Shown here in pieces: positions 1-62,278 of a stretch of 64,000 bases of DNA. Positions within the stretch are counted from its first letter, which is position 1. Each line of letters starts with the position of its first letter. Source of the stretch: Octopus vulgaris (Eukaryota). A program made the position numbers and the translations under genes. The DNA is taken from positions 99,758,001-99,822,000 of the forward strand of contig OX597819.1 in assembly GCA_951406725.2 (NCBI GenBank), in the 5' to 3' direction. The notes below the pieces were generated by a model that worked only from the letters and a program-made list of their open reading frames with translations, had not been told where the DNA came from and did not search any database.

Positions 1-1319
1 GTCCTAGATATATAGTGACCGAAAAGAAGTAGTCGTTACTCGATTGCTTTGTTTCAAAGTTCTTATTTATCTACGTAAACCTGGAGCTGAATAATATTTA
101 AAGCCAGCTTTCACCGGATAAGTCTGGCTTGGAAACGTGTACTATACTTTTAGTATTTGTTTCAGACGCCTTTGTAGTTGCAAGCAGACCTAGACACTCA
201 CTCAATTGTCCCACACTTGAGCTAACAGTACATTCAGGATGCAAAATTTAAAAGGCAGGCTGCATCATTATTTCACTGATGCCCGTTTATAGGTGAGTAA
301 AGTAAAACTGTGTGAAATGAAATACCATCTTAAGAGTATATAGCAGTCCCTGGTACACGAACTGATCACCCGACATGATTTTCAACCTAAGTAGCAACAA
401 CATCGATATCAACAAGTGTATGTATACTTGAGATAGGGCGAAGATGGCAAAAAGGGAAAGAGGTGGGGGAAGAAATTGTACTATGTGTGTAAGTATGAAT
501 AATATATCAGCTCGTCAGTTCGTTCTCAGAGATAAGCTTAAATTTAGATTATTTAATCGATTTCCTACATTGGATAAATCACAGATTTATAGAGAAAGGT
601 CGAGAAATATTTGCGTGATCACACCATTTAGCATTTTGTTAAACCATCTGCACACTTCGTTGTTGATGTTGTTAAACTCTATGGCAGCCCTGTTCCAATA
701 CGGACGTTCTGTCCAAGATGAACTCATTTTCTTTTTGGTGGGGAGTAGTTCTAATTCAGAATCGTGTGCTACTTCTTGCTGATCAAGCGACTACGTAGCA
801 GATCCTTTGTTTAACTTACGAGAAGAAAGGTACAGTTGACAATGTACAAATTTCAATTGCTACTTTAATTACAGTGAAATGTTTTAGCGGATCTCTAAAA
901 TATCGCCGATGAGAAATCTTCTACGTAGTTGTGCAGCCTGCTTGTCAGGGCAGGTAAATCTCTGAAATCAAACTCTACAGTTGTTTTAGACGGAATGTCA
1001 TAATTGATAACGAAATACAAGTTTAATTATCTGAAAAGGCATAATGTCTTTCCTTTTAGATTTGTTCTATCAGAACCAACCTAGCATTAACGAACCTTGT
1101 CTTTCTATGAACATCACGATTACCATTAAAATAACATGCTCCTAAAATTCATGGAAAGCTCACTATAAAATCTAGAAACGCTTTCAGTTACTCGTGAGAA
1201 TGTTTCTCTTTTTAATATAGTTAAATAACCTAGACGCTAAAAGCATAAACATTGCACAAACTTACATTTCTGCTTTTGACAGAATCCAAAACTTTGTACA
1301 AAGACAATATCATGCTTAC

Positions 1320-1552
1320 CATTATCAGTGGCACCAATATTCAGTAGATGGACATAATTGGTTAACAAGTCTCGAGTAGAAGGTCCAATTACATCTCTCC
1401 AACCTTTCCAGGCCCATAACAATTGTCTGGGATCTCGACTAACTGACATCATATTTATAAGATCTGGTTCCAAAGACAAGCATTTGCGGGCAGCACAAAG
1501 TTTCGATTTCGAATAGGTTCTCGACATTTGCTGTTGAAACACTTTTTGTTTT
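1320..1552 (-). CDS. ACE-like (peptidase M2) gene, coding exon; gene continues past the left edge of the window
   Basis: Encodes KQKVFQQQMSRTYSKSKLCAARKCLSLEPDLINMMSVSRDPRQLLWAWKGWRDVIGPSTRDLLTNYVHLLNIGATDNG, which matches the ACE segment M..IYS...C..LEPDL...M..SRD..LLWAW.GWR..G. Acceptor tttattag|A is phase 2 and fits the upstream exon. Donor is G|gtaagc (phase 1). Confidence 0.9.
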
Positions 1553-2500
1553 CTAATAAATATACAGTGGGTTTCTGATAAAATATACAGCAGCAACAAC
1601 AATTATAAGTAATAATAGTACCCAAGGAAATTTCACGGTTCAATTTAGTGGTACTGTATCAGCCATAAAACTCTTCCCTTGTCGGTCGGAATATCTTGTT
1701 ATTTCGTTCATAATGCTTAAATGAACACTCTGCTGCTTACTTGAATGAATTGTATTGATTCAGTGAATAATTATACTATAGTTTGATAATAATTGAAAAT
1801 AGATTTGAGCGGTAATATTTCTGATACGTTTCATTACTAGAGGGAAGTTTTCTGTCTGACACTGTACTTATTTTTATTCCTTATGCATGAAAATATATGA
1901 GATAAAATGCTGCAATTTTGATTACACAATCATTTATATGCATGAACAATATACATAATACATCAATAATGTAAAACAAGGTAAGTAGAACTAATTATGC
2001 ATGCATATCAAAATTGCAAAATATCCATGTCTATATATGACTCAGCGTTACCAAACGGTTAATGTGCGCACGTGTAGTTGTGTTTTTAACTATGTTAAGC
2101 ATTTACATATATATGTGAGTATGTTAATGTGTGTGTGCCTCTGTGGCAGTGTTTCTATATTTTTCTAAGATACTTGAATTTCACTTGTTGTCCTATGGTA
2201 TGTAAACATACTATACATGTTATATATATTTACAATATTTCCTAGTTTCAGCATACTTGGATTCCTCACACTTTATTGCAATCTTAGTGTAATTATGGCC
2301 CATATAGCTTCAAGATGGGAGTTGTGAGATATATTTCTGGACTCAGGGTCTCCATATCTGTAAAAGATATGTTTTATATACAAGTACTCAGTGGTGAGAA
2401 GAAAGAGATAAGTTATCGCTCAGCAGGATGCCTATGTATGTACGCATACATTTATATTCGTGTGTTTATATGTATGCATACGATTGCATATATACATACT

Positions 2501-4323: not shown

Positions 4324-4381
<58 letters not shown>

Positions 4382-4404
4382 ATGTTACATTACTCGGTAG
4401 TCAA

Positions 4405-4465
4405 GATAAAACTCTGAGTTTCAGATGCCGAAGTGGAAATCCACAACACCATCTCTTCGGTTATC
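4405..4465 (-). ncRNA. hammerhead ribozyme in PLE 3' region (left arm copy)
   Basis: Reverse complement of 7003-7063. Confidence 0.7.
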
Positions 4466-4660
4466 TGGCTATTTGAAAACGTTATGAAAAAATACCGTTA
4501 AAAATGAAGGGAAATTACTCTGTTATAACTCTGCTTTGCCTGCGTACTTATACATCGCTCGCATTTTTCGTCATAAAAATTATATAAAAATACATAAAAA
4601 TATATAAAAATATATAAAAATATATAAAATCTTCTTGGGACATAACACAGAAAGCATGTT

Positions 4661-5643
4661 CTATCCGTTTTCTTTAGGGGACCAAAAACGTAACAGAAAT
4701 TTAGTCACATGTGGGCATGATCCGAAAAGCTCTGTCCTTGTATTTAGACATGTGGTAGGGTCTAAGCTGCTTTTCCAGATAAGCCATCTCTCCATGTCGC
4801 ATAAACCGCACCTTCCGCTGCCGTTAGTATAGGGCTTACATCTGGCCAAAATCTTCCATTGTATGTTATAATCGACACCTTTATCTCTTAAAGACCAAAT
4901 ATGATTGGATAATTGTGTCGCTTTTCTTTTGTTCCAGTGCCTAAAGCTCAAAGTGTGGTTATTGAACCTGGCCTTGAAATTACCCTCTGTCAGGCCCACG
5001 TATTTCTTCGTCGAAACGGTGTCTTTAGTGGTTATAGATTTTACGGTAGCTTCATATATGATGGTCTTGGACATGCAAGCTCCATTTAGCGGGCACAATT
5101 CTTTATTCCTGCATGAACAGCTGTTTTCTTCTTGTGTTTTTTGTATGTTATGATTGATTATGTTTTTAAAATTGGTAGTTGAACTAAAACTAATTTTTAA
5201 ATTGTGTCTATTGAAGAGTTTCCTATAAGCATGGTTAACTGGAAAATGTCTATCTATCAGTGCTAGGAAATATTTACCTATATTGAAGGCCACCTCGGGT
5301 GAGTAAGGGGGCGTAAACCAGATGACCTTCCTATTTCTATTATTCCTTTTCCTTATTGTTGGGCTGGTGATAGGTGTATATTTTATTTTTTCGCTAAAAC
5401 CACTATCTTTTAAAGCTTTATTATAAACTGGGGCAACGCTATTGAAGATGTCCTCATTAGATGAAAGGCTAGAAATCCTCTTACTAATATTTTTAACTAA
5501 ATTTTTGAATACTATATGGGGATGGCATGAACCTACATTAATATAACTTAGTCTATCATTGGGCTTCCTATAAGGCTTATAAATATTATTATTAAGATCT
5601 AAGGAAACGTCTAAGAAATTGACAACCGTCAGGTTAGTGTCTA
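4661..5643 (-). pseudogene. PLE RT-thumb/GIY-YIG fragment, inverted copy
   Basis: ORF 4661-5293 is nearly identical to the C-terminus of the 5797-6807 protein. Confidence 0.85.
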
Positions 5644-5700
5644 GATACTAGACACTAACCTAGATATCTCCTAGATACCTTCGGTAATACATTCCCTAAC

Positions 5701-6807
5701 GTACATTTCGCCATCTACAAAGGTGATGCCCTCGCCTTAACAGCTAATACAAATGGACCAGCACAAGATCGTTTTAGGAAGGATATTATCCAGTTAATGA
5801 AACACTTCGGACTTAGTATAACTATAGACACTAACCTGACGGTTGTCAATTTCTTAGACGTTTCCTTAGATCTTAATAATAATATTTATAAGCCTTATAG
5901 GAAGCCCAATGATAGACTAAGTTATATTAATGTAGGTTCATGCCATCCCCCTATAGTATTCAAAAATTTAGTTAAAAATATTAGTAAGAGGATTTCTAGC
6001 CTTTCATCTAATGAGGACATCTTCAATAGCGTTGCCCCAGTTTATAATAAAGCTTTAAAAGATAGTGGTTTTAGCGAAAAAATAAAATATACACCTATCA
6101 CCAGCCCAACAATAAGGAAAAGGAATAATAGAAATAGGAAGGTCATCTGGTTTACGCCCCCTTACTCACCCGAGGTGGCCTTCAATATAGGTAAATATTT
6201 CCTAGCACTGATAGATAGACATTTTCCAGTTAACCATGCTTATAGGAAACTCTTCAATAGACACAATTTAAAAATTAGTTTTAGTTCAACTACCAATTTT
6301 AAAAACATAATCAATCATAACATACAAAAAACACAAGAAGAAAACAGCTGTTCATGCAGGAATAAAGAATTGTGCCCGCTAAATGGAGCTTGCATGTCCA
6401 AGACCATCATATATGAAGCTACCGTAAACTCTATAACCACTAAAGACACCGTTTCGACGAAGAAATACGTGGGCCTGACAGAGGGTAATTTCAAGGCCAG
6501 GTTCAATAACCACACTTTGAGCTTTAGGCACTGGAACAAAAGAAAAGCGACACAATTATCCAATCATATTTGGTCTTTAAGAGATAAAGGTGTCGATTAT
6601 AACATACAATGGAAGATTTTGGCCAGATGTAAGCCCTATACTAACGGCAGCGGAAGGTGCGGTTTATGCGACATGGAGAGATGGCTTATCTGGAAAAGCA
6701 GCTTAGACCCTACCACATGTCTAAATACAAGGACAGAGCTTTTCGGATCATGCCCACATGTGACTAAATTTCTGTTACGTTTTTGGTCCCCTAAAGAAAA
6801 CGGATAG
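5701..6807 (+). pseudogene. PLE reverse transcriptase C-terminus plus GIY-YIG endonuclease (5'-truncated)
   Basis: The frame is open from at least 5701 and reads IYKGDAL (degenerate YxDD), NFLDVSL, YRKP, S.HPP, W.TPPYS, a CxCx5Cx5C linker, IIY...KYVGLTE..FKARF..H (GIY-YIG), and C-terminal CGLC...LN.R.E...CPH. Confidence 0.9.
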
Positions 6808-7002
6808 AACATGCTTTCTGTGTTATGTCCCAAGAAGATTTTATATATTTTTATATATTTTTATATATCTTTATGTATTTTTATATAATTTTTATGACGA
6901 AAAATGCGAGCGATGTATAAGTACGCAGGCAAAGCAGAGTTATAACAGAGTAATTTCCCTTCATTTTTAACGGTATTTTTTCATAACGTTTTCAAATAGC
7001 CA

Positions 7003-7063
7003 GATAACCGAAGAGATGGTGTTGTGGATTTCCACTTCGGCATCTGAAACTCAGAGTTTTATC
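7003..7063 (+). ncRNA. hammerhead ribozyme in PLE 3' region
   Basis: gataa-CCGAAGA-gatg..gtgga-tt-tccac..catc-t-GAAA-ctc-a-gag-t-t-ttatc. Stem I is gataa/ttatc, stem II is gatg/catc, stem III is near-palindromic. The core has a U4C variant. Confidence 0.7.
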
Positions 7064-7160
7064 TTGACTACCGAGTAATGTAACATATTGTATAGATAAA
7101 TTTCCTCTATTTACATAATATTGAAGTCTCTTTCTTTCTTTTGTTATCTTACCGTTTTAT

Positions 7161-7210
<50 letters not shown>

Positions 7211-9747: not shown

Positions 9748-10152
9748 CTATATACGTTTAATGTCAGGGTTCAAAACATTTATTACAATTTGATATATAT
9801 AATAAACAATGAAATCATTGTACGATGCATGCTAACCAATGTCAACAAGCACTACAGATCATACTAGAAATTATTTTCTGCGATTTATTAATCCTATGTA
9901 CGCTAGTATGCTCTACTACATGATATTTAGTATTTATATTCTGAGTTAACGTTCTAATCTCAAGTAAAAATCTTTTGAAATCGGGATTTCTATTTTGAAA
10001 AGATAACAAAAATGAAAATAAAAAGGGCCGAAATTGATTGTATATTTGATAAGAAAATTCAAAAGAGAATAATTTGTCAACACATTTTGAAAATGTTTTA
10101 CCGATTGAGTAAGCGTTTCTAAATATTCAATGTAAGTTAAATTGATTCTTAC

Positions 10153-10301
10153 TTGATTACTGTTTTCTTGAGAAATATTCGTCTCATAACGCCATTGAGC
10201 ACTGTTCAGCCTCTCGTTCCAAACTCTGCTAACCTCATTGCTGTGTTCTAACCATCTTTGCACAGTCTCCTTTGTTACTGAGTCCTTTAATAATTGAGGG
10301 C
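10153..10301 (-). CDS. ACE-like gene, coding exon
   Basis: Acceptor ttttgaacgcag|GC (phase 1), donor CAA|gtaaga (phase 0). Encodes PQLLKDSVTKETVQRWLEHSNEVSRVWNERLNSAQWRYETNISQENSNQ, containing the ACE N-terminal A.W.Y.TNI...N motif. Confidence 0.88.
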
Positions 10302-10408
10302 CTGCGTTCAAAATTAATGAAAAAGAAAAAAGAAATACAAAGAAAAAATAGCTCTTTGTAAATTTGTGATCTGCGACTAAATTGCAACTACTTTTAAGAA
10401 AAATACAC

Positions 10409-10496
<88 letters not shown>

Positions 10497-22545: not shown

Positions 22546-22564
22546 GCAAGCTAGCTAGCTATCT

Positions 22565-23545
22565 ACGACGATGAGCTCGAGGCGAACCTGGACATCGACG
22601 AGGAATACCTGACCCACCTGTTCGGGATGACTTTCGGGCCAGGGCCCATGGACAACTTCCAGAGATCACTGGTCTGGCAGTGCTACCGAGAAGCGCGACC
22701 CGTTCGGGATAACCTCTTCAGACACGGCTCGAGAAACACGGGGCCGACCTGCTCGAGATGCGGTCAGAGCGACGAAACCGTTCTGCACGCACTCGTGCAG
22801 TGTCCAACAATTTCCGACCTGTGGACTTATGTCGAACAACTGCTGTCACGTGTGGGACGAGTCGGTTTATCAACTGAGTCTATCGTCAATATTGTCACGC
22901 CTCCTTCCTTCAAATGGGAAAGAAGAGCTATTTTCATCATCCTTGTGACTATGGCGAAAGAATGTATCTGGTGGACGCGTCTGAAAGGATTGGAGACAAA
23001 CACTTTCCTCTCTGGTCAATCTCTCATCAACTTCTTCAAGTACCACTTGAAAAGGAAAGTGAGAGTAGAGAGGCAAGTTTTGTCTAGCGAATGTTCTAAA
23101 AGAAGATGGGTGAATGTAGCAAGGATGGCACGTATGAAAGACGAAGCCACCTTGAGCATAATCCTATGAACCCAGAAATTGAAAACAGAGGGTTATCCAC
23201 TTGCAAACAAATGTGGTAACATATAACAATATTGACCGAGGTTACCGTGGTCTTTTTCGTAGGCTTTTCTTCCCACGGATAAACCTTATCTGCTTCCCCC
23301 TTTACACCGTACATCATGACACTGTGATACACGATCCCTATTGATCGTTTTTTCCTCTTCCCCTTTTTTCTTCTTTTTTCTTTTTTTTCTTTTGTTTCTT
23401 TTCCTCTTTTCTTTTTTTCCTTTTACCATCCCTTTTGATCGAAAACCTACGCCACTTTTTTTTTCTTTTCATCCCCTAAAAGAAAAGCTCTACCTTGTAA
23501 TTTGTCCCATCTGTGTGCAACCCTGTGTGGCCAATAAAGAAATTT
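22565..23545 (+). mobile_element. Tx1/L1-clade LINE, 3' fragment with zf-RVT region and 3' UTR
   Basis: ORF 22627-23169 reads W..YREA.PVRD.L...C.RC...DETV.HALV.C...W (CCHC finger). It is followed by a pyrimidine-rich UTR, AATAAA and then tatctatcta. Confidence 0.85.
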
Positions 23546-35419: not shown

Positions 35420-36860
35420 GTGTGTATGCACCCAAAAGTATTAGGCCACCCCAATGTTTTGGGGTTCTGCTATTTCAATGTTAATGAAACTCGTGCTAAT
35501 GGTAGATTATAGTATATTTCACAATATACATTAGTTTTAATATCTGGCTGACCCTCCTTTAGCATCAATTATCGCTTTTATACGGCTAGACATTGAATCA
35601 GCTAGTTTCTTGCAGGTGCTTGGTGTAATTTGACTCCATTTTTCTCTTAACGTTTGGTACAAATGCTTTTTATTTTGAATTGCTGTGTTCCTGATAGATT
35701 CACCAAGAGTTCTCCATAGGTGTTCGATCGGATTTAGATCAGGATTTTGAGCTGGACAGTCTGTAGGAACAATACCCTGTGCCTCAACCATTGAGGAGTA
35801 ATCTTTGCTGTATGACACGGAGCGTTGCCCTATTGAAAGATAATACTGTTTCTCGACACTCCTGGATGCAATTTAGCAATTGGTGGCTTTAAAACATCTG
35901 ATAACAGAAGCATAGGTAGCTATATTTATCCTTCCCTGACATAAAAACATTTCTCCGGGTCCTGTGGCAGACATGCAGGCCCACACCATGTTAGAATTAC
36001 TCCCATCTTTTATGGTTGGTACGAGACATTCGGCCTTAAATGCTTCCTCAAGTCTGCGACGCATGAAAGTTACACCAGATGTACCGAAAACCTGACTAAA
36101 AACATCAAAAATATTAGCTTTATGTTGGATTCTTTTCTATATATTTTGGGTAACAAACCAGTTACATTAAGTTTATATGTTGATTGAATGCATGCACGAT
36201 CTTACATAATAGTTACTTTCCTCAGACCATATGACTTTTGACCATTGCTCACTGAGTGGTTTTTGGCCTACAGAAAACGTTTTACCTTATTCGCTTCGGA
36301 AACCCATGGCCTCTTCCTGGCGTTACAGCCTTTCAGCCTGTATTCTACAAGCCTTCTTCTAAACGTTCTGGTTGATATTTGTGAAGTATTTGCCTTGTTG
36401 AAGTCCGCACAGAATTCAGATGATGTTTTTCTTCTGTTTCTGAGCGACTGACGGATGATGCATCTATAACCACGAGTTGATGTAACCTTTCTGCCTGTTC
36501 TTTGTATTGTCTTCATATCATTTGCCTCTCTGAAATGCTTGAGAGTCGTTTGTACTGCATATCGAGAACATTTCATCTTCTGAGCTACGATTTGACCTCG
36601 TTCACATTCACTCAACTCCCTTGTTTTAGGCATGTTACTGTTTATTAACCGTATCTACAATGTATTTTAGCATACAACTCTGAAATAATCAAGGAAACAT
36701 GAGTTAATTTTGGACATTGGTCTAAATCATAATTGGTTGCATATGTAGAGTACAGTATAAAAGTGGGAATTGATGCTAGAACCAGATAACAAAACTAATG
36801 CATATTGTGAAATATACCATAATCTGCTATGTGGCCAAATACATTCGGCCAAGGCTGTAT
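35420..36860 (-). mobile_element. Tc1-family DNA transposon, degenerate, with an intron in the transposase
   Basis: Fragments MPKTRELSECERGQIV...RKRPW (36268-36633), WSEES, MVWACMS and PAQNPDLNPIEHLW...IIDAKGG..RY* (35537). Imperfect TIRs aaaagtattaggccac / gtggccaaatacatt. Several stops and frameshifts. Confidence 0.9.
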
Positions 36861-37643: not shown

Positions 37644-37684
<41 letters not shown>

Positions 37685-37870
37685 TATAAAAGGGCTTAGT
37701 AAAATAAATTACTTTGCCGCATACTGAACTCATTAGAAATAGCAGCTAAAAAAACTTTTTTAAAACTATTTCCAATACTTAAAGAAAATCTCTCTCATAT
37801 AGTGTTTGCTCAATTCAACTCACGAAAGTATGAGGGTAGAAACATTAAAAAATCAAATGCAAAGGTTATT

Positions 37871-37923
37871 TGAGAACGTACGTTTCAAGATTAGTCAAAA
37901 TCGACACTTCTATCATCAGCTCA
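37871..37923 (-). ncRNA. minimal type I hammerhead ribozyme, array copy 1
   Basis: tgag-CTGATGA-t-aga-agt-gtc-gatttt-gac-taa-tct-t-GAAA-cgtacg-T-T-ctca. Confidence 0.85.
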
Positions 37924-38429
37924 GAACTCCCTGGTTTGGATTTGAAAACACTGAAAGTAGGAGCATACCTTTTCGGCTTCCCATCGCCTCTGAAGATCTA
38001 CTCGAAACTAACAGTGCCAGCAAATTCAAATGTGCAAGCGAAGAATTTCTGCTCTCCCCCTTCCACCAGCGTGGGTTAAAATCAGCAAACAACATGCTTT
38101 TTTTCGGTAAAATCCGAGGCATTAAATAGAGAGAGATGAATTATAATTTCAACAATTGAGGGTAAAATTAATTAATTAATCAATTTCACCAAGTATTCAG
38201 TATGCAAAGGGACCATTTAAGGCGAATTCAAATTATTACATTATATAAAAGGGCTTAGTAAAATAAATTACTTTGCCGCATACTGAACTCATTAGAAATA
38301 GCAGCTAAAAAAACTTTTTTAAAACTATTTCCAATACTTAAAGAAAATCTCTCTCATATAGTGATTGCTCAATTCAACTCACGAAAGTATGAGGGTAGAA
38401 ACATTAAAAAATCAAATGCAAAGGTTATT

Positions 38430-38482
38430 TGAGAACGTACGTTTCAAGATTAGTCAAAATCGACACTTCTATCATCAGCTCA
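38430..38482 (-). ncRNA. hammerhead ribozyme, array copy 2
   Basis: Same motif as copy 1. Confidence 0.85.
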
Positions 38483-38986
38483 GAACTCCCTGGTTTGGAT
38501 TTGAAAACACTGAAAGTAGGAGCATACCTTTTCGGCTTCCCATCGCCTCTGAAGATCTACTCGAAACTAACAGTGCCAGCAAATTCAAATGTGCAAGCGA
38601 AGAATTTCTGCTCTCCCCTTCCACCAGCGTGGGTTAAAATCAGCAAACAACATGCTTTTTTTCGGTAAAATCCGAGGCATTAAATAGAGAGAGATGAATT
38701 ATAATTTCAACAATTGAGGGTAAAATTAATTAATTAATCAATTTCACCAAGTATTCAGTATGCAAAGGGACCATTTAAGGCGAATTCAAATTATTACATT
38801 ATATAAAAGGGCTTAGTAAAATAAATTACTTTGCCGCATACTGAACTCATTAGAAATAGCAGCTAAAAAAACTTTTTAAAACTATTTCCAATACTTAAAG
38901 AAAATCTCTCTCATATAGTGTTTGCTCAATTCAACTCACGAAAGTATGAGGGTAGAAACATTAAAAAATCAAATGCAAAGGTTATT

Positions 38987-39039
38987 TGAGAACGTACGTT
39001 TCAAGATTAGTCAAAATCGACACTTCTATCATCAGCTCA
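38987..39039 (-). ncRNA. hammerhead ribozyme, array copy 3
   Basis: Same motif as copy 1. Confidence 0.85.
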
Positions 39040-39543
39040 GAACTCCCTGGTTTGGATTTGAAAACACTGAAAGTAGGAGCATACCTTTTCGGCTTCCCAT
39101 CGCCTCTGACGATCTACTCGAAACTAACAGTGCCAGCAAATTCAAATGTGCAAGCGAAGAATTTCTGCTCTCCCCTTCCACCAGCGTGGGTTAAAATCAG
39201 CAAACAACATGCTTTTTTTCGGTAAAATCCGAGGCATTAAATAGAGAGAGATGAATTATAATTTCAACAATTGAGGGTAAAATTAATTAATTAATCAATT
39301 TCACCAAGTATTCAGTATGCAAAGGGACCATTTAAGGCGAATTCAAATTATTACATTATATAAAAGGGCTTAGTAAAATAAATTACTTTGCCGCATACTG
39401 AACTCATTAGAAATAGCAGCTAAAAAAACTTTTTAAAACTATTTCCAATACTTAAAGAAAATCTCTCTCATATAGTGTTTGCTCAATTCAACTCACGAAA
39501 GTATGAGGGTAGAAACATTAAAAAATCAAATGCAAAGGTTATT

Positions 39544-39596
39544 TGAGAACGTACGTTTCAAGATTAGTCAAAATCGACACTTCTATCATCAGCTCA
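39544..39596 (-). ncRNA. hammerhead ribozyme, array copy 4
   Basis: Same motif as copy 1. Confidence 0.85.
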
Positions 39597-40092
39597 GAAC
39601 TCCCTGGTTTGGATTTGAAAACACTGAAAGTAGGAGCATACCTTTTCGGCTTCCCATCGCCTCTGAAGATCTACTCGAAACTAACAGTGCCAGCAAATTC
39701 AAATATGCAAGCGAAGAATTTCTGCTCTCCCCTTCCACCAGCGTGGGTTAAAATCAGCAAACAACATGCTTTTTTTCGGTAAAATCCGAGGCATTAAATA
39801 GAGAGAGATGAATTATAATTTCAACAATTGAGGGTAAAATTAATTAATTAATCAATTTCACCAAGTATTCAGTATGCAAAGGGACCATTTAAGGCGAATT
39901 CAAATTATTACAAAAAAGCATATTGTTTTGCTGATTTTAACCCACGCTGGTGGAAGGGGGAGAGCAGAAATTCTTCGCTTGCATATTTGAATTTGCTGGC
40001 ACTGTTAGTTTCGAGTAGATCTTCAGAGGCGATGGGAAGCCGAAAAGGTATGCTCCTACTTTCAGTGTTTTCAAATCCAAACCAGGGAGTTC

Positions 40093-40145
40093 TGAGCTGA
40101 TGATAGAAGTGTCGATTTTGACTAATCTTGAAACGTACGTTCTCA
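40093..40145 (+). ncRNA. hammerhead ribozyme, array copy 5
   Basis: tgagCTGATGAtagaagtgtcgattttgactaatcttGAAAcgtacgTTctca, read directly on the plus strand. Confidence 0.85.
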
Positions 40146-40649
40146 AATAACCTTTGCATTTGATTTTTTAATGTTTCTACCCTCATACTTTCGTGAGTTG
40201 AATTGAGCAAACACTATATGAGAGAGATTTTCTTTAAGTATTGGAAATAGTTTTAAAAAAGTTTTTTTAGCTGCTATTTCTAATGAGTTCAGTATGCGGC
40301 AAAGTAATTTATTTTACTAAGCCCTTTTATATAATGTAATAATTTTAATTCGCCTTAAATGGTCCCTTTGCATACTGAATACTTGGTGAAATTGATTAAT
40401 TAATTAATTTTACCCTCAATTGTTGAAATTATAATTCATCTCTCTCTATTTAATGCCTCGGATTTTACCGAAAAAAGCATGTTGTTTGCTGATTTTAACC
40501 CACGCTGGTGGAAGGGGAGAGCAGAAATTCTTCGCTTGCATATTTGAATTTGCTGGCACTGTTAGTTTCGAGTAGATCTTCAGAGGCGATGGGAAGCCGA
40601 AAAGGTATGCTCCTACTTTCAGTGTTTTCAAATCCAAACCAGGGAGTTC

Positions 40650-40702
40650 TGAGCTGATGATAGAAGTGTCGATTTTGACTAATCTTGAAACGTACGTTCT
40701 CA
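40650..40702 (+). ncRNA. hammerhead ribozyme, array copy 6
   Basis: Same motif as copy 5. Confidence 0.85.
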
Positions 40703-41207
40703 AATAACCTTTGCATTTGATTTTTTAATGTTTCTACCCTCATACTTTCGTGAGTTGAATTGAGCAAACACTATATGAGAGAGATTTTCTTTAAGTATTG
40801 GAAATAGTTTTAAAAAAGTTTTTTTAGCTGCTATTTCTAATGAGTTCAGTATGCGGCAAAGTAATTTATTTTACTAAGCCCTTTTATATAATGTAATAAT
40901 TTGAATTCGCCTTAAATGGTCCCTTTGCATACTGAATACTTGGTGAAATTGATTAATTAATTAATTTTACCCTCAATTGTTGAAATTATAATTCATCTCT
41001 CTCTATTTAATGCCTCGGATTTTACCGAAAAAAAGCATGTTGTTTGCTGATTTTAACCCACGCTGGTGGAAAGGGGAGAGCAGAAATTCTTCGCTTGCAC
41101 ATTTGAATTTGATGGCAATGTTAGTTTCAGTAGATCTTCAGAGGCGATGGGAAGCCGAAAAGGTATGCTCCTACTTTCAGTGTTTTCAAATCCAAACCAG
41201 GGAGTTC

Positions 41208-41260
41208 TGAGCTGATGATAGAAGTGTCGATTTTGACTAATCTTGAAACGTACGTTCTCA
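41208..41260 (+). ncRNA. hammerhead ribozyme, array copy 7
   Basis: Same motif as copy 5. Confidence 0.85.
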
Positions 41261-41765
41261 AATAACCTTTGCATTTGATTTTTTAATGTTTCTACCCTCA
41301 TACTTTCGTGAGTTGAATTGAGCAAACACTATATGAGAGAGATTTTCTTTAAGTATTGGAAATAGTTTTAAAAAGTTTTTTTAGCTGCTATTTCTAATGA
41401 GTTCAGTATGCGGCAAAGTAATTTATTTTACTAAGCCCTTTTATATAATGTAATAATTTGAATTCGCCTTAAATGGTCCCTTTGCATACTGAATACTTGG
41501 TGAAATTGATTAATTAATTAATTTTACCCTCAATTGTTGAAATTATAATTCATCTCTCTCTATTTAATGCCTCGGATTTTACCGAAAAAAAGCATGTTGT
41601 TTGCTGATTTTAACCCACGCTGGTGGAAGGGGGAGAGCAGAAATTCTTCGCTTGCACATTTGAATTTGCTGGCACTGTTAGTTTCGAGTAGATCTTCAGA
41701 GGCGATGGGAAGCCGAAAAGGTATGCTCCTACTTTCAGTGTTTTCAAATCCAAACCAGGGAGTTC

Positions 41766-41818
41766 TGAGCTGATGATAGAAGTGTCGATTTTGACTAATC
41801 TTGAAACGTACGTTCTCA
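41766..41818 (+). ncRNA. hammerhead ribozyme, array copy 8
   Basis: Same motif as copy 5. Confidence 0.85.
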
Positions 41819-42635
41819 AATAACCTTTGCATTTGATTTTTTAATGTTTCTACCCTCATACTTTCGTGAGTTGAATTGAGCAAACACTATATGAGAGAGA
41901 TTTTCTTTAAGTATTGGAAATAGTTTTAAAAAAGTTTTTTTAGCTGCTATTTCTAATGAGTTCAGTATGCGGCAAAGTAATTTATTTTACTAAGCCCTTT
42001 TATATAATGTAATAATTTGAATTCGCCTTAAATGGTCCCTTTGCATACTGAATACTTGGTGAAATTGATTAATTAATTAATTTTACCCTCAATTGTTGAA
42101 ATATATATATATATATATATACTCAAACCAACACATGTTGGTTGATAATTTAGCTTGCTTAAATTATCGTGTATATATGTGCATACGTGTGCGCCGCCAG
42201 ATATGCTTACGTGCGTTAATGTGCGCACGTGTGTATGCATGTGTATTGGGGATGAGTGGGGGTTGAAGGCATGTGTATTCTTGTAAGGCGAGCTAGTGTG
42301 AATGCGATTGATTTTATTACACTTACCATCAACACCACATTTAAGAGAGACATCCCTGTGTACATCAACACAATCACCACCACCGTCGCTGCCACTACTA
42401 CTACTGCTACTCGTAAGCAATGAAATTGCGATGGTGCCTTTTCAGTAAATATTGACTATGTTATGTAACAACTGTGTGAACGATCACTTACATAATTGGT
42501 GAAAACTAAATATATCCCTCATTTGAGCAATCATTACTTTCTCTATCTCTAAATATAATCACAACCATATGTGTGTGTGTGTGTGTGTATGTATATATAC
42601 ATATACGCACACACACACACACATGTATATGTATG

Positions 42636-52789: not shown

Positions 52790-53252
52790 CATACATACAT
52801 ACATAAACACACACACACATACACACACACACAGTATTGAAGCTTGAGAACAATCAGATACATTTGCAACACATCTGTTGAAAATATTATTGTTCACACA
52901 CATACATATACATATATACATACAGACAGACAGACAGATAGACACACACACACACATGATCCAGCATGGCCACAACCTCAAGGCTGAAACATATAAAAGA
53001 ATAACAGAATATAAATGTGTGCATGTGTGTGAGAGAGAGAGTGTGTGTGTATATGTATGTATGTATGTATGTATGTATATATATATAATAATGCGGTTTT
53101 TTCAACAGCTTGAACTAAAAGTCAGAGGGGAATGGGATAAACTACTTATATTAACTTGCTATAAAAGCAGGTAGTAATTTTATCTTGTCCTTATTCATAG
53201 TGCAAGTTTTGAAGAGTGCATTTCGATTTTAACAGCTATTTTTTTCAAAGAT

Positions 53253-53675
53253 ATGTTGGAAGTAACAAAGGAGCATATTTGGCATATTTTGCTTTATGAG
53301 TTCAATAAAGACAACAACGCAGCGGAAAGTACAAGAAATATTAATGCAGTATATGGGGATTGGACAATAAGCGTAAGGCAGTGTCAATGGTGGTTCCAGA
53401 AATTCCGAGCCATAAACTACAGCCTAGAAGACGAGCCTCATCCTGAAAGATCTGTAGAACTCGACAAGGACATCCTGAAAACCCTGGTGGAACAAAATCT
53501 CATCGTAACTGTTGAGGAACTAGCAGAGAAGTTTGGATTTGGTCATTCAACCATTCATTGAGACCTGTGTGCTATCGGAAAAGTCAGCAAATTGGGTCAA
53601 TGGGTTCCTCACGAACTTTCCGAGTCTAATTGCATGCAGAGAGTGAATGTATGCTTTTCTTTGCTGTCACATCTC
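53253..53675 (+). pseudogene. mariner transposase N-terminal fragment
   Basis: MLEVTKEHIWHILLYEF...INAVYG...QWWFQKFRA.NYSLEDEP (HTH). After the stop at 53561 the frame continues into KLGQWVPHELSE, the mariner WVPHEL motif. Confidence 0.88.
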
Positions 53676-60955: not shown

Positions 60956-62278
60956 TCTCTCTCTATATACAAAGCAGTTTGTCTGTCTGTGTGTCTGTCA
61001 GGTTGTACCCTCACCCTGACCACGGCTTTCAACCGATTCTGATGAAACTTGACACACACGTAGCCCAATTTCATAATTCAAAACTAACGCAGGGAAAATT
61101 TTGAAAAGTTCCCCCAGTTCTGAAAAAAATTGATAAATTCGACATGGGGTCGAGAATCTAAGCTTTTCATGTGCAACACATTTTCTGTTGTAGTTTTCGC
61201 AACTTGCAATCGATTTTCACCAAACTCATGGTGAAGCTTAATGTTACCCTAAGAAACTTAATTCTGTCGTTAGTTTTCTATGCAATACCTTACCATCAGA
61301 AAAAATCGATAAAATCATGCCAATTTGGGAAATCGCGTTCTAATTCAAGATGACATATTTTCGACAATATCTTTAACAAATTGGCGGGTTTTTTTTTTTA
61401 ATTCACAGCGAACATCATCTCTGCTCCAAGGAGCTATATGGCCCTTTTTATTCCAATAGGATACTTTATTACTGGAAAAAACCGGTTAATTAAATATGTG
61501 GCACACATAGCAAACCGATTTGTGTATTAAACACAAACCACAGACTGTCTAAGGGACGCAACTCGACCTACTTTAACTCTCTTACTCCCCCAAATAACTA
61601 AGCTACTTGAAGCTATTCCTGGCGATATCCACGTCTACAAATCTATAGATAGGACAGCAGACCCCGCCGAGCTTGCCGATTATCCTGTTGAATTCCTAAA
61701 TTCACTTGAACCGCCAGGCCTGCCGCCACACATCCTGAAGTTAAAAGTCGGTGCGCCCATTATGCTCATCGGGAATTTGGTTCCACCTAAACAGTGCAAC
61801 GGCACACGTCTGGTTGTGAAACATTTGGCACCACATTTAATAACGGCCACAATACTTACCGGTTGTGGGAAGGAGAGGACGTCTTCATTCCACGCATGCA
61901 CCTTCAATCGTCGGGCGCTGACCTACCAATCCACTTCAGGCGTTCTCAGTTTCCTGTTAAACTCTGCTTCGCAATGTCTATCAATAAATCCCAAGGCCAA
62001 ACACTACAAGTCGCTGGGTTACATTTGGGCGAACAGTGCTTCGCCCACGGACAACTCTACGTGGGCTGTTCATGCGTTGGGAGGCGCAATGATGTTTTCA
62101 TGTTTTCGCCCAAAGGAACAGCTAGGAACGTCGTATACACATAAGTATTGGAGTGAAGAGAAGACATTGCAAACTACACATGCGCCTTCGTTCCCTAGAG
62201 GGAAAGGTCTATATCGGGATTAGTCGTTGCCTACTAGGGGCTCTTACATACCCGAGCAACGCCGGGCTATGCTGCTAG
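60956..62278 (+). mobile_element. internally deleted Helitron
   Basis: 5' A|TCTCTCTCTATATACAAAG, 3' CCCGagcaacgcCGGG-N8-CTAG|T, with a PIF1-type helicase remnant inside. Confidence 0.88.
61600..62160 (+). pseudogene. Helitron PIF1-like helicase C-terminal fragment, frameshifted
   Basis: YPVEFLNSLEPPGLPPHILKLKVGAPIML.NL...CNGTRL, a frameshift near 61870, then VFIPRM...RRSQFPVKLCFAMSINKSQGQTL...F.HGQLYV.CS. Confidence 0.92.

Follow-up and report, generated by a model that had tools for sequence, protein, structure and literature searches.

The window analysed here, 64,000 nucleotides of the Octopus vulgaris genome (contig OX597819.1, positions 99,758,001 to 99,822,000), contains a fold-back array of tandem, hammerhead-bearing units at positions 37678-42100. 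It represents a single young insertion from a non-coding family dispersed in the genome. We consider it highly probable that this family, whose units carry predicted hammerhead ribozymes, is a non-long-terminal-repeat (non-LTR) retrozyme, likely mobilised in trans by a Penelope-like element (PLE) that targets (TA)n tracts. A first-pass annotation had proposed the retrozyme reading from the letters of the window, and the analysis supported it on each point that sequence can address.

Structure and spread of the array family

The array comprises two arms of 557-559-bp units, with 99-100% identity among units; unit positions 1-559 are numbered here from window positions 41542-42100. Near-identical head-to-tail units in both orientations, lying between (TA)n tracts, had been described in the first-pass annotation, and this arrangement was recovered in full, with two arms and eight motifs (Table 1). 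Its comparison of the outward-facing 3' ends with those of a PLE at 4374-7162 also held, but the right arm is not some 100 bp longer, as had been thought, measuring 2,189 bp against 2,235 bp for the left. The impression of extra length arises because the outer end of the right arm reaches 89 bp further into the unit. The five outer units have a C at unit position 116. The period is purely tandem and no LTR-type organisation was seen, a primer-binding site and a polypurine tract not having been searched for separately; no part derived from transfer RNA was found in the unit. The only open reading frames (ORFs) of at least 90 amino acids (aa) in the array are 90-108 aa long and all antisense, without a Pfam match and missing from a subfamily 77% identical to the window unit, which bears out the earlier judgement that the array holds no credible protein.

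The organism's own genome (2.8 Gb in 227 contigs) was searched with the window unit, yielding 1,457 first-look candidates, 40 of which were scored; queries from the different subfamilies gave 1,323-1,562 each. The loci analysed were all 38 other loci among the matches listed, together with 12 from a search with the ribozyme only. Copies occur on many contigs in (TA)n tracts, from monomers to multimers of variable unit number, as the first-pass annotation had predicted, and the concern that the unit might be restricted to this locus did not hold. At least three young subfamilies were distinguished, with units of ~558 bp, ~545 bp (89% identity) and ~566 bp (77%), each 97-100% alike internally, and a closed period of 545-567 bp is kept in all three. 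The ~545-bp and ~566-bp subfamilies were met by chance beside PLE loci. Family copies were present in 5 of 121 loci that had been picked for PLE proteins, and the family is therefore abundant. Contigs from sequencing runs under four organism labels align on the unit, one of them with an opposite-strand joint. The largest array, at L049 (G000:C5:140708392-140716323), holds ~14.4 units in 8.0 kb, with variants common to runs of neighbouring units. No excess of changes that would trace adenosine-to-inosine editing was seen among inherited variants (12 A>G, 8 T>C).

Predicted ribozyme and RNA fold

Each of the eight units carries one type I hammerhead motif, identical over 78 nt in all copies, so that the complete and unchanged core noted at the outset was confirmed. 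The motif has a full core, a 4-bp stem I and a long, interrupted stem II with a U-U mismatch at its base. Stem III had been taken to be loopless; in the monomer it is instead predicted to form 2 bp capped by a GUAC loop, while the 10-nt palindrome AACGUACGUU would permit a dimer with a predicted energy of -11.6 kcal/mol. Helices I-III are paired in 94.8% of cells, falling to 29-48% when the register is slid by 1. Among the inherited variant sites of subfamilies 1 and 2, none of 77 lies in the core or the helices, which together make up 36 positions (P = 0.004). Single-copy mutations do strike the core and helices, with 7 in these 36 positions and 150 in the other 523. In the 77% subfamily every core letter is kept, with A-U at the base of stem II where subfamily 1 has U-U, C-G for U-A in distal stem II (one compensated pair), a 3-bp stem III and a GUA cleavage site. 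By this pattern of variation the ribozyme core is shown to be under purifying selection.

The monomer between predicted cleavage sites folds far better than its shuffles, with z = -5.2 as a linear molecule (100 shuffles) and z = -5.7 as a circle (40 shuffles); its antisense strand reaches z = -3.1. Using pairs predicted from the window monomer alone, we compared the 118 substitutions that separate it from subfamily 3 with 2,000 random relocations of the same substitutions. They break 20 predicted pairs where relocation breaks 35.1 ± 4.1 (0/2,000 as low), and they leave 8 compensated pairs where 3.3 are expected (P = 0.01). The scarcity of broken pairs and the excess of compensated ones indicate selection on RNA and not on DNA alone, and by these comparisons the fold is shown to be conserved at 77% identity and under purifying selection. 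The consensus energy lies between -106 and -108 kcal/mol at any cut point, and the register of the fold therefore cannot separate a circle from a multimer. A transcript reading through the whole fold-back would likely pair sense with antisense and so mask its own ribozymes.

Several unrelated short hammerhead fragments lie in the flanks of family loci (L031 near 6400, L113 near 3450, L151 near 3080, L026, L009, L027 and L107), some of them with the U-U mismatch where stem II starts; hammerhead families are densely represented in this genome.

Insertion ends and the template of the two arms

In all three subfamilies the outer ends lie at one of two fixed sites, unit positions ~465-473 (short) and 559 (long), 89 bp apart, and both are AU-rich patches running into (TA)n. 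The 51 subfamily-1 loci comprise 37 fold-backs and 14 single arms, giving the PLE-type combination of 5'-truncated partial tandems with an inverted second arm in 37 of 51; a tail lying between two fixed initiation sites, another PLE-type feature, is present in all three subfamilies. One long and one short end were found in 33 of the 37 subfamily-1 fold-backs, two long ends in one, two short ends in none and another end in three. The other two subfamilies show the long-short pair in 8 of 11 and 12 of 15 fold-backs, counts that leave out five loci cut by the locus edge. Overall, 53 of 63 fold-backs have one end of each kind and none has two short ends. The inner (5') ends behave differently: all 88 together are spread evenly over the unit (Kolmogorov-Smirnov P = 0.51), with a single one close to the cleavage site. 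Arms have a median length of about one unit and reach up to 8.

The PLE at 4374-7162 served as a comparator. A C-terminal endonuclease, together with RWK, DKT and CxCX5C motifs, rules out Naiad and places it in the Hydra clade (cf. PMC8557442; here and below, published sources are cited for the parts on which we drew). It has its own hammerhead, with the core variant CCGAAGA and a predicted cut after 7058, and it ends 36-40 and 104 nt past that cut, leaving a tail of 64-68 bp. Its family (4374-7162; L099-L102) has a 717-aa open frame, and at least 150 of its copies have the same sequence throughout the endonuclease region. A long and a short end were paired in 17 of 19 scorable Hydra fold-backs, with 2 of 21 left out for want of a scorable motif. 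The array family, at 53 of 63, thus has the insertion geometry of the neighbouring PLE, as the first-pass annotation had suggested.

The two arms were further compared for their sequence variants. Where both arms of a subfamily-1 locus cover a site, the shared variants comprise 196 that all units of the two arms carry, 5 carried by part of the units in each arm and 34 confined to a single arm. Of the variants seen at one sampled locus alone, counted over the three subfamilies, 19 are present throughout the covering units of the two arms and 121 in one unit of one arm, the latter as later mutation predicts. By these variants both arms are shown to be nearly always of one haplotype, pointing to the same template. 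Snap-back synthesis of the second arm was considered and rejected: of 33 fold-backs, 19 have the short-end arm as the longer of the two, and arm lengths are uncorrelated; the second arm therefore reflects separate priming on the same RNA or source. A linear monomer template, likewise rejected, would pile 5' ends at the cleavage site, a pile-up that is absent (1/88). Since the template spans the cleavage site, it would be either a ligated circle or an uncut multimer.

In the mechanism that we propose, a PLE endonuclease would cut both strands of a (TA)n tract, and a reverse transcriptase (RT) dimer on one RNA would prime at two internal AU-rich sites (~470 and 559), one for each DNA end, aided by AU-rich microhomology to (TA)n. 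Each cDNA would pass the ribozyme site, run for up to 8 units and stop at random, and joining of the two truncated cDNA ends would give the palindrome. Within this model, we put the chance that the template is a monomeric circle at about even or a shade better. A more specific version is tentative: the 558-nt circle made by the ribozyme would be the direct template of the PLE RT dimer, with two starts 89 nt apart from both ends of the break, rolling round the same circle and each enzyme displacing the cDNA of the other.

The same element and PLE machinery could also have copied an uncut linear read-through of an existing tandem array, with the ribozyme used otherwise and no circle formed. We hold this possible, at somewhat under even odds. 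It finds a precedent in a Poseidon PLE in vitro, which used mainly unprocessed RNA as its substrate and gave no reads ending at the cleavage site (PMC11167929), and it sits well with 5' ends that are not piled at that site. An uncut linear multimer also explains the 24 variants held by only some units of an array, a pattern to which we return below. Its difficulty is that near-uniform arms of up to 4-8 units occur in many different haplotypes, a uniformity which a monomeric circle explains despite a median arm of about one unit. Linear copying alone would shorten arrays and keep mosaics, and a monomer-to-multimer step is therefore needed. The avoidance of the ribozyme core by inherited variants also speaks against a linear template, as do the circles demonstrated for retrozymes in coral, mussel and axolotl (PMC7229834). 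Neither a circle nor a multimer fits the pattern of the window array exactly without later gene conversion or assembly error.

A partner PLE was sought in several ways. BLASTN of the unit against the Hydra family of the window, full-length copies included, gave no significant similarity, and against a second Hydra family and other PLE families it returned only family copies. Several further families, with ORFs of 778-934 aa, are represented among the 121 PLE-centred loci. A search of 110 array loci, some of them overlapping, with four PLE proteins found no joined PLE ORF, and no copy attached to a PLE ORF as a terminal repeat, which the first-pass annotation had advised looking for, came to light. 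PLE ORF fragments lie near 9 of the 110 loci, those within 0.7 kb separated from the array by (TA)n and the rest at least 0.7 kb away; two arrays lie 33 and 91 bp from such fragments, with (TA)n between. A short TAATGTAA common to the unit and the Hydra element near the short end was rejected, being neither in register with the ends nor significant. At L193 (2602-3111) a subfamily-3 copy abuts the inverted 3' end of a PLE of an 899-aa family with no (TA)n between, an outer-end-to-outer-end contact that is probably a nested insertion or a deletion.

These searches bear on whether the genome still contains a coding PLE of which the unit is the pseudo-LTR (pLTR) or a remnant left by internal deletion, the array then being a tandem of pLTRs. 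Such an origin is suggested by Xenopus, in which 24 of 57 retrozyme families match Repbase repeats, nearly all of them PLE termini (bioRxiv 10.64898/2026.07.22.740005), and by the hammerhead style of the unit, with its long stem II and palindromic stem III, which is like that of motifs downstream of Hydra-like ORFs here; moreover, the genome has many active PLE families, of which a part was sampled. We nevertheless judge it unlikely, given that the unit is dissimilar to the Hydra family of the window and to the 121 PLE-centred loci, that nearby ORF fragments are set apart in each case and that the closed period persists in three subfamilies down to 77% identity; a distant PLE ancestry of the unit is possible. 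We think it very improbable that the palindrome reflects local satellite amplification or an assembly artefact from fold-back chimeric long reads. Palindromes do assemble poorly, and no listed contig bridges the centre of the array by at least 31 letters on both sides; bases specific to the junction had a depth of 60 in one run and none in the other three, a result too weak to be used. The arms are not mirror copies, though, differing in outer ends, inner breakpoints and unit-specific variants; the 89-bp asymmetry recurs across the family, and a contig from an independent run contains a joint between opposite strands.

Several observations weigh against a ribozyme-processed retrozyme moved by a PLE. 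Rfam did not match the hammerhead, either at the gathering threshold or at E values up to 10, and weak cleavage of the monomer is to be expected from its U-U mismatch and a stem III of 2 bp. In Xenopus, only one of nine predicted retrozyme dimers cleaved in vitro (bioRxiv 10.64898/2026.07.22.740005), and hammerhead cleavage was not required for PLE insertion in vitro (PMC11167929). The covariation in the fold rests largely on a single subfamily split. Loci were picked by similarity to the full unit, which inflates long arms, 76 of the 88 crossing the cleavage site. Some variants, 8 private and 16 shared, are carried by several units of an array without reaching all of them, and such partial-unit variants, for example the C at position 116, are not explained by a single monomeric circle without gene conversion or assembly error. 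Lastly, a profile of 101 units run against the 121 PLE-centred loci, a sample of the PLE families, found only family copies and no partner PLE.

Known systems, surrounding features and significance

The retrozyme assignment places the family beside the metazoan non-LTR retrozymes (PMC7229834; bioRxiv 10.64898/2026.07.22.740005), which likewise consist of non-coding tandem units with a type I hammerhead each and a GC content below 50%, are dispersed as monomers to multimers, have a strongly self-paired unit and coexist with PLEs proposed as the mobiliser. The ribozyme resembles axolotl HHR_Amex2 in its 2-bp helix III with a tetraloop and the U-U at the base of helix II, and HHR_Amex2 cleaves better as a dimer (PMC7229834). 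Units of 545-567 bp exceed the 170-400 nt of PMC7229834 but are not beyond animal retrozymes in general, as had been supposed, since the consensus sequences of retrozymes cover 51-972 bp in bioRxiv 10.64898/2026.07.22.740005, a range that includes the unit. Circles have been shown for the published retrozymes and are plausible for the present family. Neither fold-backs with fixed long and short ends nor a cephalopod case is described for retrozymes in the parts of these two sources that we drew on; our literature search found no cephalopod retrozyme, with an octopus entry possible in their supplements.

Hydra-clade PLEs share with the array (TA)n targeting, a hammerhead near the 3' end, partial tandems, an inverted 5'-truncated arm and a tail at one end, the tandems, inverted arms and tail being described PLE features (PMC8557442, whose File S1 lists Hydra-1_Obim). 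The array differs in lacking a protein, in having no significant shared sequence with the Hydra families tested and in its 89-bp tail, against 64-68 bp in the Hydra PLE here and typically 30-40 bp (PMC8557442). In the Poseidon PLE of Anolis, the tail made in vitro is the stretch between two internal, adjacent initiation sites, and the enzyme, predicted to act as a dimer, cuts and extends both DNA strands (PMC11167929), features that match the ends and the proposed mechanism of the present family. Poseidon initiation is AC-rich with no homology to the target, whereas both ends here are AU-rich and (TA)n-like, which suggests microhomology-assisted priming. Chlamys PLEs such as MRC1 offer a parallel in non-coding PLE passengers and multicopy head-to-tail insertions, but the non-autonomous elements resemble their autonomous partner at the 3' end and mostly lack hammerheads (PMC8557442), and no such resemblance was found here. 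A twin-priming or two-ended priming model for PLEs was not found in our literature search, and the part of PMC13282606 that we drew on does not mention ribozymes.

Other young PLE families were encountered in this genome. Hydra-like families of 778 aa and ~890-930 aa without the CxCX5C linker (L212, L214, L215, L217-L222) have RIRW for RWK and a hammerhead stem II region of ~60 nt, and L212 holds full tandem PLE copies of ~3.6 kb. A 781-aa family with a C-terminal GIY-YIG domain and a CxxxxCxxC linker (L213, L225, L231) is Neptune/Nematis-like, with a tandem 3' untranslated region. In the window itself, two exons of an angiotensin-converting enzyme (Peptidase_M2) gene lie at 1240-1602 (-) and 9949-10410 (-), with the Hydra fold-back between them and hence in an intron; the array is ~27 kb upstream of the first Peptidase_M2 coding exon seen. 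Decayed Tc1/mariner transposases, a LINE zf-RVT fragment and a Helitron-type Pif1 helicase fragment occupy 35540-36654 (-), 53178-53558 (+), 22555-23166 (+) and 61531-62220 (+).

Table 1. Features of the fold-back array and its comparator, in window positions
Position	Strand	Feature
37678-42100		Entire fold-back insertion of the non-coding hammerhead retrozyme family (probable assignment); two arms, 3' ends outward
37678-39912	- (ribozyme sense)	Short-end arm: unit positions 467-559, three full units and 1-470; 2,235 bp, 4.0 units; outer end is the short initiation site
39912-42100	+	Long-end arm: unit positions 45-559 and three full units; 2,189 bp, 3.9 units; outer end is the long initiation site
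39905-39930		Central junction where the two 5'-truncated arm ends meet; 1-nt overlap within an A run, two changes adjoining
42012-42100	+	89-bp tail, present at the long outer end and absent from the short one; PLE-type signature
41257-41814	+	Monomer between predicted cleavage sites, 558 nt; branched predicted fold
40093-40145	+	Type I hammerhead motif, predicted cut after 40141 (GUU)
40650-40702	+	Type I hammerhead motif, predicted cut after 40698
41208-41260	+	Type I hammerhead motif, predicted cut after 41256
41766-41818	+	Type I hammerhead motif, predicted cut after 41814
37871-37923	-	Type I hammerhead motif, predicted cut 37875/37874
38430-38482	-	Type I hammerhead motif, predicted cut 38434/38433
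38987-39039	-	Type I hammerhead motif, predicted cut 38991/38990
39544-39596	-	Type I hammerhead motif, predicted cut 39548/39547
37646-37683		(TA)n target tract, left
42101-42122		(TA)n target tract, right
4374-7162		Comparator outside the array: fold-back of a 5'-truncated Hydra-clade PLE with CxCX5C linker, one short and one long end

Retrozymes, their range of unit lengths, their proposed PLE origin, the tail and the inverted arms are already in print. The family is not a new type of element; its value lies in the support that it lends and in its convenience as a test system. The link between retrozymes and PLEs has so far consisted of co-occurrence and sequence similarity; here a retrozyme family itself bears the PLE insertion signature, with an active coding PLE alongside in the same genome. 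The abundance of young copies in the family narrows down the ways in which PLEs could produce tandem and inverted insertions, pointing to one long and one short end per event and one RNA haplotype on both arms, and this strict end rule, together with the single-template result, is the part that merits a specialist's attention. If the ribozyme-made circle were indeed the direct template, the family would provide a compact and still active model in which one circle-templated mechanism accounts for the PLE tail, the partial tandems and the inverted arms, and which would also cover the coding Hydra element, whose ends lie so close beyond its own cleavage site.

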